This document shows positions 33,620 through 43,174 of a DNA stretch of 64,000 nt, piece after piece. Origin of the DNA: an uncultured Acidimicrobiia bacterium (GTDB lineage: Bacteria; Actinomycetota; Acidimicrobiia; IMCC26256; JAENVU01). The notes under the pieces were generated by a model. That model was given only the letters and a program-made list of their open reading frames with translations. It made no database searches and was not told where the DNA came from. The stretch is from assembly GCA_963765075.1 (NCBI GenBank), contig CAVXVA010000001.1, positions 870,075 to 934,074 on the forward strand. Reading direction: 5' to 3'. Both the position numbers and the translations under genes were made by a program. Every line of letters starts with the position of its first letter. Within the stretch, counting starts at the first letter, position 1.

Positions 33620-34177
33620 TCAGCCGCCGTAGTTCATACGGGTGTCACTCATACCCAGGACCGGCGTGTCCTCGTCCTTGAGGAAATGGCAGTCGACGAC
33701 CTCGCCGGCGAAGAAGGTGTGGTTGCCGATCTCCATGCGGTCACGGAGTTCGCAGTCGAGGAACGCGACCGACTGCGTCAACACGGGCGCGCCGGTCGTG
33801 TGCTCCTCGTACGCGAACCCGTTGAGGGTCTTCGCATCCAGATCGACGTCGACCGGTTTGGTGAACTTGCGCACGATCGCGCGGTCTTCCTGATCGATGA
33901 GACACACACTGAAGACCTGGCCCGCCTCGATGAGTTCGTGCGTGAAGGCGTCGCGTTCGATGCCGACACCGACCCACTTCGGATCGAAGCTCAGTTGGGT
34001 GACCCAGTTCGTGGTCATGCCGTTGCGGCGGTCGCCCCTGTCGGTGCTCCCGACCACGTAGAGACCCGACGGCATCTTCCACAGCACCCGCCGCCGCAAC
34101 TTGTCGTACTCGATCTGATCGTCAGCAGAACTCACCCGCGCGGGGTAGGGCCCGACCGGCCCGTCTTTGGTTGCCAT
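33620..34177 (-). CDS. Flavin reductase family protein
   Basis: ...LWKMPSGLYVVGS...NGMTTNWVTQLSFDPKWVGVGI... is present. ATG 34177 was chosen inside the longer ORF. Confidence 0.85.
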   Translation of the reverse strand: MATKDGPVGPYPARVSSADDQIEYDKLRRRVLWKMPSGLYVVGSTDRGDRRNGMTTNWVTQLSFDPKWVGVGIERDAFTHELIEAGQVFSVCLIDQEDRAIVRKFTKPVDVDLDAKTLNGFAYEEHTTGAPVLTQSVAFLDCELRDRMEIGNHTFFAGEVVDCHFLKDEDTPVLGMSDTRMNYGG

Positions 34178-34183
34178 CGCCTC

Positions 34184-34189
34184 AGGGTA
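34184..34189 (-). promoter_or_regulatory. -10-like hexamer TACCCT, 6 nt upstream of the flavin reductase ATG (leaderless geometry)
   Basis: The minus-strand TACCCT is followed by a 6-nt spacer and ATG at 34177. Confidence 0.3.
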
Positions 34190-34302
34190 GGCACACCGCA
34201 GATCGGTCGAGGATGCGCTCGACGAGTTTCGGTGCAACGATCGGGTCGACCCCGAGACAACACCCTCATCTGATCGACGGGCAGGATCGAGGAGGCACAG
34301 CC

Positions 34303-35913
34303 ATGGACATGGTGAAGATCGCAACCTGGAGCGAGATTCCCGACCGCGAACCCATCGGCGTCACCGTCGAAGGCATCGACCTGGTGATCGTCCGCCAGGA
34401 CGATGAGCACTCCGTGCTCTACGGCCGGTGCCTCCACCGGGGCGCGCTCCTCGCCGACGGCCACATCGAGGGTGAGGACCTCATCTGTGGTGTCCACGGC
34501 TGGGACTACCGCATCGAGTCCGGCGTCAGCGCCTACAACAACGCCGAGGCGCTCGAGAAGTTCACCAGCGCGGTCGAAGGCGACGACCTCTTCGTGAACC
34601 GCACCGAGGTGTTGCAGTTCGCGATGCGTCACCCGCAGCCGTACACGCCCGACGTGTACCAGGGCTACTACCAAGACCCACACATGGTGCCGGAAGAACC
34701 GTTCGTCGCCTACATCCACGAGCTCGCGGGCAACGGTCTCACCAAGACCGGCCACCACGGTCCGCTCGGGGCGATGGGCGTGCCGCGCGACGAGCTACCG
34801 AAGTGGGACCACATCCAGTTCGTGACCGCGCAGCTCGCGCGGCTCCCTCACCTCGACGACGAGCCCGTCGGCACCGAGGTCTGCATCGGCCCGAATGCCG
34901 ACAAGCCGCTGTGGCTCGACATCCCGCTGTTCGTGTCGGACATGAGCTTCGGCGCGCTCTCCGAAGAAGCGAAGACCGCGTTGGCCCGCGGTGCCGAGCT
35001 CGCGGGCACCGGCATCTGTTCCGGCGAGGGCGGGATGCTGCCCGAAGAGCAAGCTGCGAACAGTCGGTACTTCTACGAGCTCGCCTCGGCCCGGTTCGGC
35101 TGGAACTGGGACGCGCTGAAGAAGGTGCAGGCATTCCACTTCAAGGGCGGCCAGGGCGCGAAGACCGGGACGGGCGGCCATCTTCCGGGCGACAAGGTGG
35201 TCGGCAAGATCGCCGAGGTGCGGGGCCTCCCCGAAGGCACCGCCGCCATCTCACCCGCGACGTTCCCGGACTGGCATTCGGTCGACGACTTCCGGCGGTT
35301 CGCCGACGATGTGCGCGAACAGTCGGGTGGGATCCCGATCGGGTTCAAACTCTCGGCCCAACACATCGAGGAAGACCTCGACGCAGCCCTCGCCATCGGC
35401 GTCGACTACGTCATCCTCGACGGTCGCGGCGGCGGGACCGGCGCGGCGCCGCTGTTGTTCCGGGACAACATCTCGGTGCCGACCATCCCCGCCCTGGCCC
35501 GCGCCCGTCGCCATCTCGACCGGCGGAACCGTCGCGACATCACGTTGGTCGCGACCGGCGGGCTGCGCCACGCGCCCGATTTCGCCAAGGCCCTCGCCCT
35601 CGGTGCCGACGCCGTGGCCGTCGCCAACTCGGCGATCCAAGCCATCGGCTGTCTCGGGATGCGCGCCTGCAACACCAACAACTGCCCCGTCGGAATCGCG
35701 ACCCAGAAGCCGCATCTGCGCGCCCGGCTCCCGGTCGACGAGGCCGCCGAACGACTCAACCGGTTCCTTCGGGCGACCGTGGAGCTGATGCAGATCCTCG
35801 CTCGTGCCTGTGGCCACACTCATCTGCGCGAGTTCTCGGCCGACGACCTCACCACGTTCGACCGTGAGATGGCCCACCTCACCGGCATCGCCTACGGCGG
35901 GGTAATGCTGTGA
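34303..35913 (+). CDS. Rieske [2Fe-2S] domain fused to a glutamate-synthase domain-2-like FMN/Fe-S oxidoreductase
   Basis: The N-terminus is CLHRGALL...CGVHGWDY. GltB-FMN-domain motifs follow: GGQGAKTGTGGHLPG, VILDGRGGGTGAAP and CLGMRACNTNNCPVGIATQ. GAGGAGG lies 9 nt before the ATG. Confidence 0.85.
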   Translation: MDMVKIATWSEIPDREPIGVTVEGIDLVIVRQDDEHSVLYGRCLHRGALLADGHIEGEDLICGVHGWDYRIESGVSAYNNAEALEKFTSAVEGDDLFVNRTEVLQFAMRHPQPYTPDVYQGYYQDPHMVPEEPFVAYIHELAGNGLTKTGHHGPLGAMGVPRDELPKWDHIQFVTAQLARLPHLDDEPVGTEVCIGPNADKPLWLDIPLFVSDMSFGALSEEAKTALARGAELAGTGICSGEGGMLPEEQAANSRYFYELASARFGWNWDALKKVQAFHFKGGQGAKTGTGGHLPGDKVVGKIAEVRGLPEGTAAISPATFPDWHSVDDFRRFADDVREQSGGIPIGFKLSAQHIEEDLDAALAIGVDYVILDGRGGGTGAAPLLFRDNISVPTIPALARARRHLDRRNRRDITLVATGGLRHAPDFAKALALGADAVAVANSAIQAIGCLGMRACNTNNCPVGIATQKPHLRARLPVDEAAERLNRFLRATVELMQILARACGHTHLREFSADDLTTFDREMAHLTGIAYGGVML

Positions 35914-36028
35914 AAGACACCACTTGCCGGTCGCTCCGCTCGCACTCCGTCCCGTTGTCGAGGCCGGGGCTCGCTGCGCGACTGCTCGCCTCTTCTCGTT
36001 CCTCGCTCCGGCTCGGAGGTCGTCGACC

Positions 36029-37990
36029 ATGACCCGCGACTCCAATGACCACACGCTGACGTTTCACAAGGTGGCGGAGTTGGATGATCTGCCGGATGGG
36101 CGGGTGCGGACGGTGCTGGCGGGCAAGCACTCGATCGCGTTGACTCGGGTCGGCGACCAGTACGGCGCGCTCGACAACCACTGCCCGCACCAGGGCGGAC
36201 CGCTCGGCGAAGGTTCGATCGAGAAAGGGATGCTGCGCTGCCCCTGGCACGGGTACGACTACGACCCGCTCACCGGAACTCCCCCATCGGGCTTCTCCGA
36301 CGCGCCGGCCTGCTACCCACTCGAAGTCCGCGCCGACGGTATCTATGTCGGCCTCCCGGCCGATCATCCGCACGAGCGGACCGTCTCGGATGTCATGGTC
36401 GAGACGATGGTCGAGTGGGGCGTCACCCACGTATTCGGCATGGTCGGACACTCCAACCTCGGATTCGCCGACGCGATGCGGCGCGCCGAAGTCGCCGGTG
36501 ACCTCACCTTCGTCGGGATCCGCCACGAAGGTGCCGCCGCGTTCGCGGCGTCGGCCTACGGCAAGCTCACCGGTCGGCCGGCCGCGTGCTTCGCGATCGC
36601 CGGCCCGGGATCGACGAACTTGCTCACGGGCCTCTACGACGCGAAGGCCGACCGCGCACCGGTGCTCGCGATCTCGGGTCAGGTGCCTTCGAAGGTACTC
36701 GGGCGGGGCGCGTTCCAGGATGTGGATCTCAACGCGGCGTTCGCCGCGGTGTCGTCCTACTCCAAGACCGTGCTCCCTGATTCGGACCATGCCGAGTTGA
36801 TGACACTCGCACTGAAACACGCGACCGTCCAGCGTGAGGTCGCGCACCTCGTGTTCCCCGACGAGGTACAGGAGAAGGTCGTCGGTGACTCGCCGCGCCC
36901 ATCCTCACCCGTCGGGCGCGTGGCCGATACGCAGATCGCTCCCCCCGCCGACGCGCTCCAGCGCGCACTCGACCTCATCGAGTCGGCGCGGCGACCGGTG
37001 ATCGTGGTCGGCCACGGAGCCCGCTTCGACATGGACGCGGTCCTCGAGCTGGCCAACACGCTCGGGGCGCCGGTGCTGACCACGTTCAAGGCGAAAGGGC
37101 AGATCTCCGACCACCATCCGCTCGGCGCGGGTGTGTTGGGGCGCAGCGGCACGCCGGTCGCGAGTTGGCTCATGAACGAATCCGACGTCCTGATCGTGCT
37201 CGGCGCGTCGTTCTCCAACCACACCGGGATCGCCTCGTACAAGCCCATCGTGCAAGTCGACTTCGACCCGATGGCGCTCGGTCGGTTCCATCCTGTCACC
37301 GTCCCGGTTCACGGTCACGTGGGCGTCACCGCGCGGCTGATCGTCGAACGGCTGGCACCGGGCGGCGAACGGGTCGATCAACGGCCCGACGTCGCCGCCC
37401 GCTGGGAGATCTGGCGGGCCGAGAAGGCGCGCCGGGTGGCCGACGACCGCGGGCTCGGAGTGTCGTCTGCGGCGATCTTCGACGCGATGAACCGGCACGT
37501 GCCGACCGACGCGGTGATGACCGTCGACGTCGGGAACCAGGCCTACTCGTTCGGTCGCTACTTCGAATGCACCGCACAGTCGGTGCTGATGTCGGGCTAC
37601 CTCGGTTCGATCGGATTCGGCTTCCCCGCGGCAATGGGTGCCTGGGCGGCCGTGGGCGACACCCGCCCAATCGTCGCGGTGACCGGCGACGGCGGGTTCG
37701 GTCAGTACCTTGCCGAGCTCACCACGGCCGTGAAGTACAACATGCCGATCACCCACGTGCTGCTCGACAACGCATCGCTCGGCAAGATCACGAAGGAGCA
37801 ACGGGCCGCGGAGTACGAGGTGTGGCACACCGATCTCCTGAACCCGGACTTCGCGGCCTACGCCGAGTTGTGCGGGGCGATGGGTCTCCGGGTCGATCGG
37901 GCCGACCAACTCGACGACGCGTTGACCCGCGCCCTCGCTCACGACGGCCCCGCGCTCGTCGCCGTGACCGCAGACGCCGAACTCATCTGA
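36029..37990 (+). CDS. Rieske [2Fe-2S] domain fused to a TPP-dependent pyruvate-oxidase/acetolactate-synthase-like enzyme
   Basis: The N-terminus is CPHQGGPL...CPWHGYDY. The TPP enzyme N-domain (...GVTHVFGMVGHSNLGF...IRHEGAAAFAASAY...) follows, with the TPP motif GDGGFGQY...NMPITHVLLDN. GGAGG precedes the ATG. Confidence 0.85.
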   Translation: MTRDSNDHTLTFHKVAELDDLPDGRVRTVLAGKHSIALTRVGDQYGALDNHCPHQGGPLGEGSIEKGMLRCPWHGYDYDPLTGTPPSGFSDAPACYPLEVRADGIYVGLPADHPHERTVSDVMVETMVEWGVTHVFGMVGHSNLGFADAMRRAEVAGDLTFVGIRHEGAAAFAASAYGKLTGRPAACFAIAGPGSTNLLTGLYDAKADRAPVLAISGQVPSKVLGRGAFQDVDLNAAFAAVSSYSKTVLPDSDHAELMTLALKHATVQREVAHLVFPDEVQEKVVGDSPRPSSPVGRVADTQIAPPADALQRALDLIESARRPVIVVGHGARFDMDAVLELANTLGAPVLTTFKAKGQISDHHPLGAGVLGRSGTPVASWLMNESDVLIVLGASFSNHTGIASYKPIVQVDFDPMALGRFHPVTVPVHGHVGVTARLIVERLAPGGERVDQRPDVAARWEIWRAEKARRVADDRGLGVSSAAIFDAMNRHVPTDAVMTVDVGNQAYSFGRYFECTAQSVLMSGYLGSIGFGFPAAMGAWAAVGDTRPIVAVTGDGGFGQYLAELTTAVKYNMPITHVLLDNASLGKITKEQRAAEYEVWHTDLLNPDFAAYAELCGAMGLRVDRADQLDDALTRALAHDGPALVAVTADAELI

Positions 37991-40162: not shown

Positions 40163-41308
40163 TCACTCCAGCCGGTGCTGACTGGCGGGGAGCACGTAGA
40201 ACCAGAACGGCTGGGGTGCACCCGCGTCCTTCATCGCCTGCTGGGCCCGATGCAGCATCTTCCCGGTGACGGTCTGCTGCGCGAACCAGCTCTCGGCCGA
40301 TCGCGCGCCCGGGACGTGCTCCGAAAGCCCGGCGGCCGCCTGTTCGTAATAGCCGCGGATCGCGAGCCCGGCCGTCACCGGATTGTCGGGAATCTCGGCC
40401 TGATCCCACGGCGTGGCGTCGTCGGCGATCCGGGTGAACCCGCGGAGGGCGGCCTCCACGACGTCGGGATCGACCGCCGCCCGTATCCCACCCGATGCGC
40501 GATCGAATGCCTTGCGCAGACCGCGCATCTCGTCAACGGCCGCAGGGAGCGACGGATCGAGTCGCGCCGGCATGGGGCACGCGAGCGCAACGTCGACCTC
40601 GTCTTCGATCACGACCGGATAGGTCGCAAGCGTCGGTTCGGTCGCGTCGAGCAATCCAAACGCGGCCCGAAGCACCTCGTGTTGGAACTCAGGGTCGCGC
40701 GGTTTGCCGAGCGGCCGCCCGAGCGGGAACTGGCAGTAGAGGCCGCGCGGGATCGGCATCCGCGCCGCAACTTCGTGCATCGAGATCAGCGAGACGGTGG
40801 CGATCCCTGCGGCTTCGAACGTGTATGCGAGCGCACCGACCGTGCGCGTACAGAGCGGTCAGACGGGAGTGAGGAGGACGACGTCGGTCCCCTGCTCCTG
40901 CAAGCGATGCGCGGCCTGCGGGCCGGTGTCGTGGAGGATCGTCGCGAGGTCGGACTGCGCACCCATGAACGAAAAATGATTCGGCGCGACGCTTCCGATG
41001 GTTCCGTCGGCCGCGAGCTCATCGAGCCGATCCACCGGGTAGACGACGTTGCGGTCGAGCATCATGCCGCTGCGGTCGAGGTTCTGACTGTTGTGACTGA
41101 TGGTGACGTCGTCGCGGCCGTGCGGGAGGACCCGGTAGCCCGGGTCGAAGATGCCGAAACTGTCTTCCGACGCCAGATGCAGACCGGCGGTGGTGACGAT
41201 CGCAACTTGCGCGTCGGCGAGGTTCGGAGCAGCCGCGAACGGAGCGCCCTCCAGCTCGGGCACGGGCAGCGACGCCATCACTGCTCGCATGTCGTGGTCA
41301 GCACCCAT
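40163..41308 (-). CDS. Glycine/sarcosine/betaine/D-proline reductase selenoprotein-B (GrdB/PrdB) family protein; predicted selenocysteine encoded by in-frame TGA at 40859-40861
   Basis: Two track ORFs (40859..41341 and 40163..40780) are in the same frame and separated only by one TGA. Read-through gives ...VVLLTPV-U-PLCTRTVGALAYTFEAAGIATVSL...FPLGRPLGKP.... A SECIS-like hairpin follows the TGA. ATG 41308 is preceded by GAAGGA. Confidence 0.7.
40822..40852 (-). promoter_or_regulatory. Candidate bacterial SECIS element (selenocysteine insertion hairpin)
   Basis: In the mRNA, nt 15-31 after the U of UGA read GCGCAC-GGUCG-GUGCGC. That is a perfect 6-bp stem with an apical loop containing GGUC. 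A lower helix UGUA/UACA is possible. Confidence 0.6.
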
Positions 41309-41578: not shown

Positions 41579-41965
41579 GTACGCAGTATGGGCCTCCGGA
41601 TGGAGTTCGACAACCAGGAGCGCGCGGCGTCACTCGGGACGTGGAATACGTGCGGGATATCCACTCCCGCCGCCGCGATCCCACCGCCAGAACACGACGT
41701 CGGGCGCTGCTCTCACTAGGGGCAACAAGAATCAGATCGGTGAACCGACCTCGGCAGCACCACCCGCTTCGGCACGCACCCCGACGACGCGACGCTACCG
41801 GGAGCCACACCAATCTCGATGGGTGGTGGAGTCGATGAGCGTTCGTGTCGACGGTCATCAAATACCACCGCGCATCAGGAATAGAACCCGTGAGCCGGCT
41901 GGACACTTGGAAGGACTTCGCAGCTTCCGGGGCATTTGTGCAGTCTGAGGGGTGGTCTCACCCTC

Positions 41966-43174
41966 ATGCCAGAATGCGAACTGATGTTCGATACTGACGA
42001 TTTCGTTGCTGATACGGCGTTCGCAGGGGTGGCCGAGACCATCGACCGGCTCCGCAGCGAGTCACGGGCCGAATGGTGCAGCGCGGCACGATCGCAACGG
42101 GTCAAGCAGATCGGTCAGAGCATCGAGGCGCTCCACGCCGAGTTCATCCGTGCCGTTGAGGTGTGGGACGGGGCGGGTGACCACGCCGCGGAGGGGGCCC
42201 TGAGTTCGACCGCATGGCTGACCCAGCATGTTCCGATGACCCGCGCCGCCGCGTCTCGGGCCGTGTCGGCGGCGCGCATGATCCGTCGTTCGGAACCATT
42301 GGCCGCGGCCCTTCATGATGGGCGTACCACCGTCGCGCACCTCGAGCAGGCGGCGAGGGCCGTCCACCGTCGCGAGGACATCTTCGAAACCCACGGAACC
42401 TCGCTGGTCGATGCCGCGACCGACGTCAGCCCCGAGGACTTCCGCGAGTGTGCCGCGTCCTGGCGGGCAAAGGCCGACGATCTCATCGGCGCACTCGACG
42501 ATCCGTTCGACGATGCCCGGGACGAACTCATCCTCTCCCCGACCACCGGTGGGCTCGGTCTGCGCGGATGGTTCCACGCCGCGGCCGGCGTCGAGATCAT
42601 GAACTTGATCGACACGTACGACCACCCCGACCCTGTGGACGGGGATCGTCCGCCTCGCACGATCGCTCAACGTCGGGCCGCCGCACTGTACGCGTTGTTG
42701 TTCGACGGTCGGGCGCTGAGCCCGAAGCAGGTCGATGTCGTGATCGACAAGGAGACTCTTCGCGCCGAATGGACGTCGGATCTCATTCGGACGCGCACCC
42801 ATGTCGAGGGCTACGGACCCGTTCCCTGTTCGCTCATCCGCAGCTGGCTGACCGAGGCGACACTCCGCCGCATTGTGTCCACCGAATCCGAAATCCTTGA
42901 CGTCGGGCGGAGCGCCCGCCTTGCCTCTCCTGCGCAGCGGCGGGCACTTCGCCACCGCGACGGTGGGTGTGTCATCCCGGGATGTCGCCGTCCGCCCCAA
43001 TGGACCGACGCTCACCACATCGTGACCTACCTCGGCGGAGGGCTGAGCGACCTCGCGAACTTCGCGCTGGTCTGTCGGCGCCACCACCGCATGCTCGACC
43101 GTGGCTGGATGCTCACGGGAAGTCCCGTCGCCGGGTGGGAGTTTTCCTCGGCGCTCGACCAGGCGCCGCCGTAG
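41966..43174 (+). CDS. DUF222 domain / HNH endonuclease (13E12-repeat-like) protein
   Basis: The C-terminal HNH motif is RHRDGGCVIPGCRRPPQWTDAHHIVTYLGGG...LVCRRHHRMLD, with a DUF222-like N-terminus. The start is uncertain (41966 or 41984). Confidence 0.85.
   Translation: MPECELMFDTDDFVADTAFAGVAETIDRLRSESRAEWCSAARSQRVKQIGQSIEALHAEFIRAVEVWDGAGDHAAEGALSSTAWLTQHVPMTRAAASRAVSAARMIRRSEPLAAALHDGRTTVAHLEQAARAVHRREDIFETHGTSLVDAATDVSPEDFRECAASWRAKADDLIGALDDPFDDARDELILSPTTGGLGLRGWFHAAAGVEIMNLIDTYDHPDPVDGDRPPRTIAQRRAAALYALLFDGRALSPKQVDVVIDKETLRAEWTSDLIRTRTHVEGYGPVPCSLIRSWLTEATLRRIVSTESEILDVGRSARLASPAQRRALRHRDGGCVIPGCRRPPQWTDAHHIVTYLGGGLSDLANFALVCRRHHRMLDRGWMLTGSPVAGWEFSSALDQAPP

Follow-up and report, generated by a model that had tools for sequence, protein, structure and literature searches.

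The bacterial selenocysteine insertion sequence (SECIS) has been described as a stem of 6-8 bp with a conserved G about 20 nt after the UGA codon (PMC4605307), and the bSECISearch model of Zhang and Gladyshev, as summarised in PMC13188914, allows a loop of 3-9 nt, an upper stem of 4-16 bp and a distance of 16-37 nt from the UGA to the loop, with a G at loop position 1 or 2, after which G or U is usual, and a minimum free energy (MFE) limit of -7.5 kcal/mol. The upper stem-loop of the Escherichia coli fdhF element spans nt 15-31 and starts 11 nt after the UGA, with an essential G and U in its loop (PMC8659212). On the protein side, the PrdB family, for which a UxxC motif is listed (PMC1088965), is among the most abundant marine selenoprotein families and has been reported since 2005, with 42 selenocysteine (Sec) versus 1 cysteine (Cys) forms in the Sargasso Sea and 235 versus 110 in the Global Ocean Sampling (GOS) data (PMC1088965, PMC2398784). 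Here, we analyse a stretch of 64,000 nt from an uncultured Acidimicrobiia bacterium (assembly GCA_963765075.1, contig CAVXVA010000001.1; hereafter, the window), in which a PrdB-like gene on the minus strand contains an in-frame UGA followed by a hairpin. On the strength of comparison among homologues, we consider it highly probable that this hairpin is a bacterial SECIS inside a PrdB-like reductase gene, where it would direct SelB-dependent Sec insertion at codon 150.

The PrdB/GrdB-family gene (40163..41308, minus strand) comprises 381 codons, from an ATG at 41308 to a terminal TGA at 40165-40163. Its in-frame UGA (40859..40861), predicted to be read as Sec150, opens the motif U150-P-L-C153, in which C153 is invariant among homologues. 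Numbering along the minus strand from the U of this UGA (40861, nt 1), the codons CCC GUC UGA are followed by an 11-nt spacer (nt 4-14, CCGCUCUGUAC, 40848..40858), the 5' arm GCGCAC (nt 15-20, 40842..40847), the apical loop GGUCG (nt 21-25, 40837..40841), the 3' arm GUGCGC (nt 26-31, 40831..40836) and then UC GCA UAC ACG. The two arms form six perfect Watson-Crick pairs, both by folding and in the alignment, and the whole stem-loop measures 17 nt (40831-40847). Both the sequence and this pairing agree exactly with those quoted in an earlier note, made from the letters of the window, which had placed the element at 40822-40852 (nt 40-10).

Set against the published consensus, the hairpin lies directly downstream of an in-frame UGA, inside a conserved open reading frame (ORF) that continues past it. 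Its loop has 5 nt and its stem 6 bp, 17 nt (nt 4-20) lead from the UGA to the loop, the first two loop nucleotides are both G, followed by U, and the MFE is -11.6 kcal/mol in the window and -8.9 kcal/mol on average in the family, compared with the limit of -7.5. Covariation maintains the stem in UGA orthologues, and Cys orthologues lack it (155/160 versus 0/13, see below); the hairpin also fits the description in PMC4605307. It differs from the printed loop pattern N1 G [G/U] N N2, of which it is not an exact match: a pair between nt 21 and nt 24 (21:24) encloses only the G-U and leaves nt 25 unpaired.

The likeness to E. coli fdhF extends to the position of the upper stem-loop (nt 15-31), the 11-nt spacer and the apical G-U, and, in the clade of the window, to the letters GGUC. 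In contrast to fdhF, the window has a pentaloop instead of a GGUC tetraloop, its G-U stands at nt 22-23 instead of 23-24 because there is no bulged U17, and the lower helix of fdhF (nt 4-14 with 32-41) is without a conserved counterpart in the PrdB-like family. The fdhF element as described in the earlier note was right in its span of nt 15-31 and its essential loop G and U (PMC8659212), but the parallel does not hold for the position of the G-U or for the bulge. The hairpin follows the general bacterial SECIS consensus and would work like the fdhF SECIS without being an fdhF-type copy. Another parallel, which we treat as a lead, is the fdhA SECIS of Moorella thermoacetica, reportedly crystallised with the winged-helix domains 3-4 of SelB as a plain helix with the pentaloop GGUCU, in which the G and U are said to be flipped onto SelB, with stacking or pairing of the G and C beside them. 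Both GGUCU and GGUCG occur among the loops of the PrdB-like family, although the Moorella gene is a different one and its helix is longer.

Taken as a single sequence, the hairpin is only moderately beyond what chance would produce. The 21-nt hairpin (nt 13-33) reaches z = -2.9, with 0/200 dinucleotide shuffles as stable, and the fold of the 31-nt interval reaches z = -1.3. Six of six pairs in the same register follow 10 of the 1,477 TGA trinucleotides in the window (0.7%), this site being the only one that combines them with G22-U23, and any 6-bp stem with a 5-nt loop 16-37 nt downstream is found after 7.3% of them. Because of this chance baseline, the evidence from the single sequence is suggestive and not conclusive. 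The hairpin could be a by-product of the amino acid sequence, or a chance GC-rich hairpin in a genome of 67% G+C, with no function at the RNA level. The 7.3% baseline fits this possibility, as do longer folds that are not beyond shuffles and the fact that part of the stem falls on the first or second bases of codons for conserved residues. What decides the matter is the comparison with homologues, where the stem can be followed in the presence and absence of the UGA.

We compared 174 homologous sites including that of the window, drawn from 80 loci of GTDB representative genomes (the best 80 of 593 relatives detected), 80 metagenome loci and 12 look-ups of named homologues. TGA stands at the homologous codon in 160 of the 174 sites (80/80 of the best genome loci and 79/80 of the metagenome loci), and the rest have Cys (11), Ser, Gly or Ala. 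All six stem pairs are present in 155 of the 160 TGA sites, and in an ungapped alignment of 150 distinct Sec sequences the helix is 99.4% paired and is recovered in the RNAalifold consensus. Within this alignment, 92 sequences pair nt 18:28 as U-A and 57 as C-G, 147 pair nt 19:27 as A-U and 3 as G-C, and nt 15:31 also shows compensatory changes, so that double changes affect three stem pairs overall; nt 17:29 alternates between G-C and G-U. In a neighbour-joining tree of the protein that excludes the SECIS codons, the switch between U-A and C-G at nt 18:28 has occurred independently at least 18 times. Each such switch couples a synonymous change of an Arg codon (CGC/CGU) to a choice between Ala/Val and Thr three codons on, and thus RNA pairing shapes the protein sequence. 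The structure therefore exists and is preserved in UGA orthologues by compensatory changes, as the earlier note had expected, and recurring double changes of this kind are difficult to reconcile with a by-product of the peptide.

Many of these homologues come from marine Acidimicrobiia. The same gene with the hairpin is also seen in metagenome-assembled genomes (MAGs) labelled Deltaproteobacteria, Gammaproteobacteria/Pseudomonadales, Burkholderiales, Chloroflexota, Planctomycetaceae, Acidobacteriota and even Bifidobacteriaceae (loci L002, L004, L012, L024, L031, L034, L039, L057, L059 and L078). This range of labels suggests either that the gene and its SECIS have spread horizontally or that binning or labelling went wrong.

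The constraint on the hairpin goes beyond the protein code. Third-position entropy is 0.06-0.95 bits across nt 15-33, compared with 1.3-1.9 bits at flanking four-fold sites, and the third codon positions of the spacer (nt 4-14) are free to vary. The codon at nt 25-27, which encodes Gly, Ser or Cys (GGU, AGU or UGU), ends in U in 151 of 154 distinct Sec sequences, and the codon after it ends in G in 153 of 154; fixed U-ending codons at nt 25-27 are unusual for these G+C-rich genes. When synonymous codons were resampled according to each gene's own codon usage, the full stem was expected in 0.7% of cases (1.35% for the window), versus 97% observed. Both the resampling and the rare codons fixed at nt 25-27 argue against a structure that merely accompanies the peptide.

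The homologues without Sec complete the comparison. None of the 13 non-Sec controls (Cys 11, Gly 1, Ala 1) has all six pairs (range 2-5, mean 3; Fisher p = 7e-16), and their mean local MFE is -3.9 kcal/mol versus -8.9 for the Sec forms. The loss occurs even where the peptide is identical: L086 (TRTVCVL) uses ACG CGA ACC GUG UGC GUG CUC where Sec forms have ACG CGC ACC GUG UGU GUG CUC, and L170 (TRTVSVL) and L168 (RTVGTL) similarly encode a Sec-form peptide with other codons and without the stem. Synonymous changes that break the stem in the Cys forms include CGC to CGA and GGU to GGC. Moreover, non-Sec homologues are dispersed among the Sec lineages, with at least 9 changes between Sec and non-Sec states on the tree, and hence loss of the helix has followed loss of the UGA repeatedly. 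The conserved structure is thus tied to the presence of the UGA. The earlier note had named two findings that would refute its SECIS reading, namely Cys-codon orthologues that keep an identical hairpin and UGA orthologues without structure; both were looked for and neither refutes it, so that its expectation of a stem lost from Cys-codon orthologues, and of a hairpin that supports Sec decoding, held. With same-peptide homologues that lose the stem when the UGA is absent, we regard a hairpin without RNA-level function as exceedingly improbable, and the comparative evidence for the predicted SECIS as decisive.

In two of the homologues, Gly (GGG) or Ala (GCG) takes the place of Sec or Cys (L086:1463 and L087:1448), with the downstream Cys of the UxxC motif kept. 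If real, these forms lack the redox-active residue and may perhaps have another role.

Which parts of the loop are under selection can be read from its variation. Among 152 distinct Sec sequences, the loop is CGUGA in 86, CGUGG in 22, CGUGU in 18, GGUCG in 11 (the clade of the window) and GGUCU in 6, with a few others. GGUC, the loop sequence that the earlier note had matched to fdhF, is therefore not the conserved feature and is confined to a minority (17/152), and what is kept is G22-U23 (40840-40839) and the complementarity of nt 21 (40841) and nt 24 (40838). G22 is invariant and U23 is present in 150 of 154 distinct Sec sequences, while nt 21:24 is C:G in 125, G:C in 17, A:U in 4 and another combination in 4 of 150 sequences. 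These two nucleotides end a Thr and a Val codon and can change synonymously. Going by codon usage, Watson-Crick pairing between them is expected in 36% and observed in 97%, with at least 14 changes at 21:24 on the tree. In addition, ACC GUC is the commonest combination in non-Sec homologues and occurs in 0 Sec forms. The element is best described as a 6-bp helix with a closing 21:24 pair, an exposed G-U and a variable, unpaired nt 25. A pair between nt 21 and nt 25, one possible reading of the published loop pattern, was rejected, as it would set G against G in the window and C against A in the majority loop.

The helix does not appear to extend downwards as had been supposed. The earlier note had proposed a second pairing below an internal loop, between UGUA (nt 10-13) and UACA (nt 37-40). 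The two strings are indeed complementary, but the minimum-energy fold ignores them and pairs UGU with GCA, and we rejected the lower helix: 55.8% of the alignment cells are paired, the inner two of its pairs cannot form in 122-128 of 150 sequences, and the third positions at nt 36, 39 and 42 vary freely. The RNAalifold consensus offers another possible lower extension, a weak and unproven one of two pairs between nt 11-12 (40851-40850) and the GC at nt 34-35 (40827..40828); its only variation is G-C/U-G, both of its sides are fixed by Cys and Ala codons, and no covariation was found in it.

It is tempting to speculate, though we would put this at slightly below an even chance, that the SECIS of the PrdB-like family is a sharply defined recognition module, tighter than the loose published consensus. 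Such a module may combine the 6-bp helix with a 21:24 Watson-Crick pair that closes around just the extruded G-U and with a single unpaired 3' nucleotide, and it may have been retained over several phyla through synonymous-site constraint together with coupled amino acid choices (CGC or CGU for Arg with Ala/Val or Thr).

Evidence from outside the hairpin also favours Sec decoding. In an Iamiaceae MAG (locus L042), a cluster of tRNA-SeC (anticodon tca), selD (TIGR00476, 307 bits versus a cut-off of 125) and selA (TIGR00474, 386 bits versus 268) lies about 400 nt upstream of the PrdB-like gene, which carries the majority hairpin; the cluster spans L042:153-2587 on the minus strand, and a gene for an ABM monooxygenase stands between it and the PrdB-like gene. 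Linkage of this kind was seen in 1 of the 82 loci scanned for tRNAs. In the window, TGA is the stop codon of 28 of 30 confidently called genes, this gene included, which rules out a reassignment of TGA. Moreover, the reading frame is unbroken before and after the UGA, G+C at third codon positions (GC3) is of the coding type (0.82-0.83) in each part, and the ratio of nonsynonymous to synonymous substitution rates (dN/dS) downstream of the UGA is 0.04-0.25, equal to that upstream, so translation continues past the UGA. With TGA an ordinary stop elsewhere and dN/dS equal on both sides, the UGA is a site of specific recoding and neither a reassigned codon nor the mark of a dead gene. Screening the window for in-frame TGAs with coding-type GC3 on either side returned only this gene and two ordinary gene junctions; applied to the flanking sequence of every fetched locus, the screen gave gene junctions only and no further selenoprotein gene. 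A search of Rfam gave no match for the window at gathering thresholds, nor any for 40760-40920 at E <= 10, and there seems to be no curated Rfam model for this element.

Several observations weigh against a SECIS and have to be considered together. The bulged U17 that E. coli SelB needs is absent from the window and from the family, whose six pairs are uninterrupted. When the minus strand of the region is folded, as the earlier note had advised, the 21-nt hairpin forms, but the 51-nt fold is no better than shuffles (z = +0.8), and neither is the 101-nt fold (z = +2.6). The non-Sec controls number just 13. One of the Cys forms, L084, has a strong hairpin of 7 bp that is shifted by one nucleotide and capped by a CGC triloop, at -12 kcal/mol (L084:1464-1480); its sister L082 has a shifted-register hairpin with a CGC triloop and just 5 bp (L082:3469-3481), the motif of this Cys-form clade being TTVCPFCPRTACAI, and the shifted hairpin could be a decayed SECIS or a product of chance. 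In L081, which holds the closest full-length homologue (P0001, 71% identical), the codon is TCA (Ser) instead of TGA and the hairpin is fully intact (L081:838-870); the contig has a coverage of 1.7x, and this TCA is probably a sequencing error or a very recent mutation and not a true Ser form. Finally, the 64-kb window yielded no gene for tRNA-Sec, selA, selB or selD: no tRNA gene of any kind was found in it, SelA, SelB and SelD were not among the products of its 20 Pfam-scanned ORFs, and tblastn with the SelA and SelD of L042 gave no match in the window or in any other fetched locus.

The last of these points bears on two further explanations. The gene may be a relic in a genome that has lost its Sec machinery, with the UGA terminating translation after 149 residues, and the lack of sel genes and tRNA-Sec in the window would agree with this. 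But sel genes are usually unlinked to selenoprotein genes, and for this reason their absence from 64 kb says little. A relic is also at odds with the intact frame and its GC3 on both sides of the UGA, with a downstream dN/dS of 0.04 against the relative L001 (92-94% identical) and of 0.06-0.09 against L002 and L003, and with a hairpin that is identical in the window and in L001-L005. All this makes a relic highly improbable. Alternatively, the hairpin could be functional without SelB: it might make the ribosome pause, favour near-cognate read-through at the UGA, or serve in regulation or stability. The window scans showed no SelB gene, and in other systems a structure downstream of a stop codon can promote read-through. 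This account has to explain why the conserved traits are those of SelB-binding SECIS elements (a small apical loop that contains G-U, on a helix of 6 bp, with a spacer of 11 nt), why the UGA replaces the redox Cys of a UxxC motif typical of selenoproteins, and why the L042 orthologue adjoins tRNA-Sec, selD and selA. We consider it very unlikely.

We infer SelB binding and Sec insertion, and a SECIS in this position would be expected to act as follows. When the UGA (40861-40859) enters the A site of the ribosome, the hairpin, which starts 11 nt downstream, would be located at the mRNA entrance. Its apical part, with the 6-bp helix, the 21:24 pair, the exposed G22-U23 and the one unpaired nucleotide, would bind the C-terminal winged-helix domain of SelB, and SelB-GTP would bring Sec-tRNA(Sec) to the UGA, so that codon 150 would become the selenocysteine of the U-x-x-C redox motif. 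The ribosome would then melt the hairpin and decode it as Thr-Arg-Thr-Val-Gly-Ala-Leu.

The protein itself belongs with the marine PrdB selenoproteins in its UxxC motif, which stands where PrdB and GrdB carry their Sec, its domain of the PF07355/TIGR04483 type and the predominance of Sec over Cys forms. It passes PF07355 (GRDB) narrowly (24.4 bits versus a cut-off of 22), whereas TIGR01918 (36.5 bits versus 65.45) and the PrdB equivalog TIGR04483 remain below their cut-offs; the latter matches residues 29-219 with E = 2.9e-33, at 115 bits versus the required 300. Further differences from that family are a C-terminal region of about 160 residues and the lack of a PrdA-like neighbour. Residues ~220-381 (40163-40700, minus strand) extend past the 238 positions of the PrdB model, and this extension is kept in homologues and contains a YYE-AA motif as well as C244, a conserved Cys; it has no sequence match in Pfam or the PDB, and a search by sequence found no homologue of the protein among solved structures. 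Because of the score below the cut-off, the additional region and the missing PrdA-like neighbour, we call the protein PrdB-like, and its sequence does not demonstrably make it a proline reductase. The Acidimicrobiia that host the gene are presumably aerobic. Protein searches returned two kinds of matches, full-length proteins of ~380-410 residues with Cys (rarely Ser, Gly or Ala) at the Sec position, and many fragments of 220-230 residues that start after it, which are what gene callers produce when they stop at the Sec codon.

The window is syntenic with the Acidimicrobiia MAG L001 (JANLRZ010000245) and 92-94% identical to it. The neighbours of the selenoprotein gene include Rieske-fusion enzymes, an amidase, a DUF222/HNH gene and an acetyl-CoA hydrolase/transferase, with no PrdA or GrdA/GrdE partner gene among them. 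The Rieske fusions are two adjacent genes (34171-37987, plus strand) in which an N-terminal Rieske [2Fe-2S] domain is joined to a different enzyme each time, a glutamate-synthase-type FMN domain (580 aa) in one and a three-domain thiamine-pyrophosphate enzyme (688 aa) in the other. Such fusions are unusual, and an amidase-like gene comes next after the pair. The DUF222/HNH endonuclease gene (41936-43171, plus strand) lies on the opposite strand from the selenoprotein gene, ~0.6 kb past its start; the L086 homologue likewise has a DUF222 gene just downstream, and such a gene may be a mobile-element neighbour.

The hairpin is a known kind of signal in a known selenoprotein family and involves no new mechanism; what our analysis adds is better annotation and a clean covariation data set that includes the 21:24 pair. 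Two hypothetical fragments, of about 150 and 220-230 residues, would become one selenoprotein of 381 residues, and the same correction of the annotation applies to hundreds of orthologues in Acidimicrobiia and other MAGs. This could improve the annotation of SECIS elements and selenoproteins in high-G+C Actinomycetota. Moreover, the 160 Sec and 13 non-Sec forms, with their many independent compensatory switches, amount to an unusually clean natural experiment that reveals which nucleotides of the SECIS are selected. Finally, if the family does share a sharply defined recognition module, that module could seed the first covariance model of a bacterial SECIS class, and its variants would provide a natural mutational map of what SelB reads.

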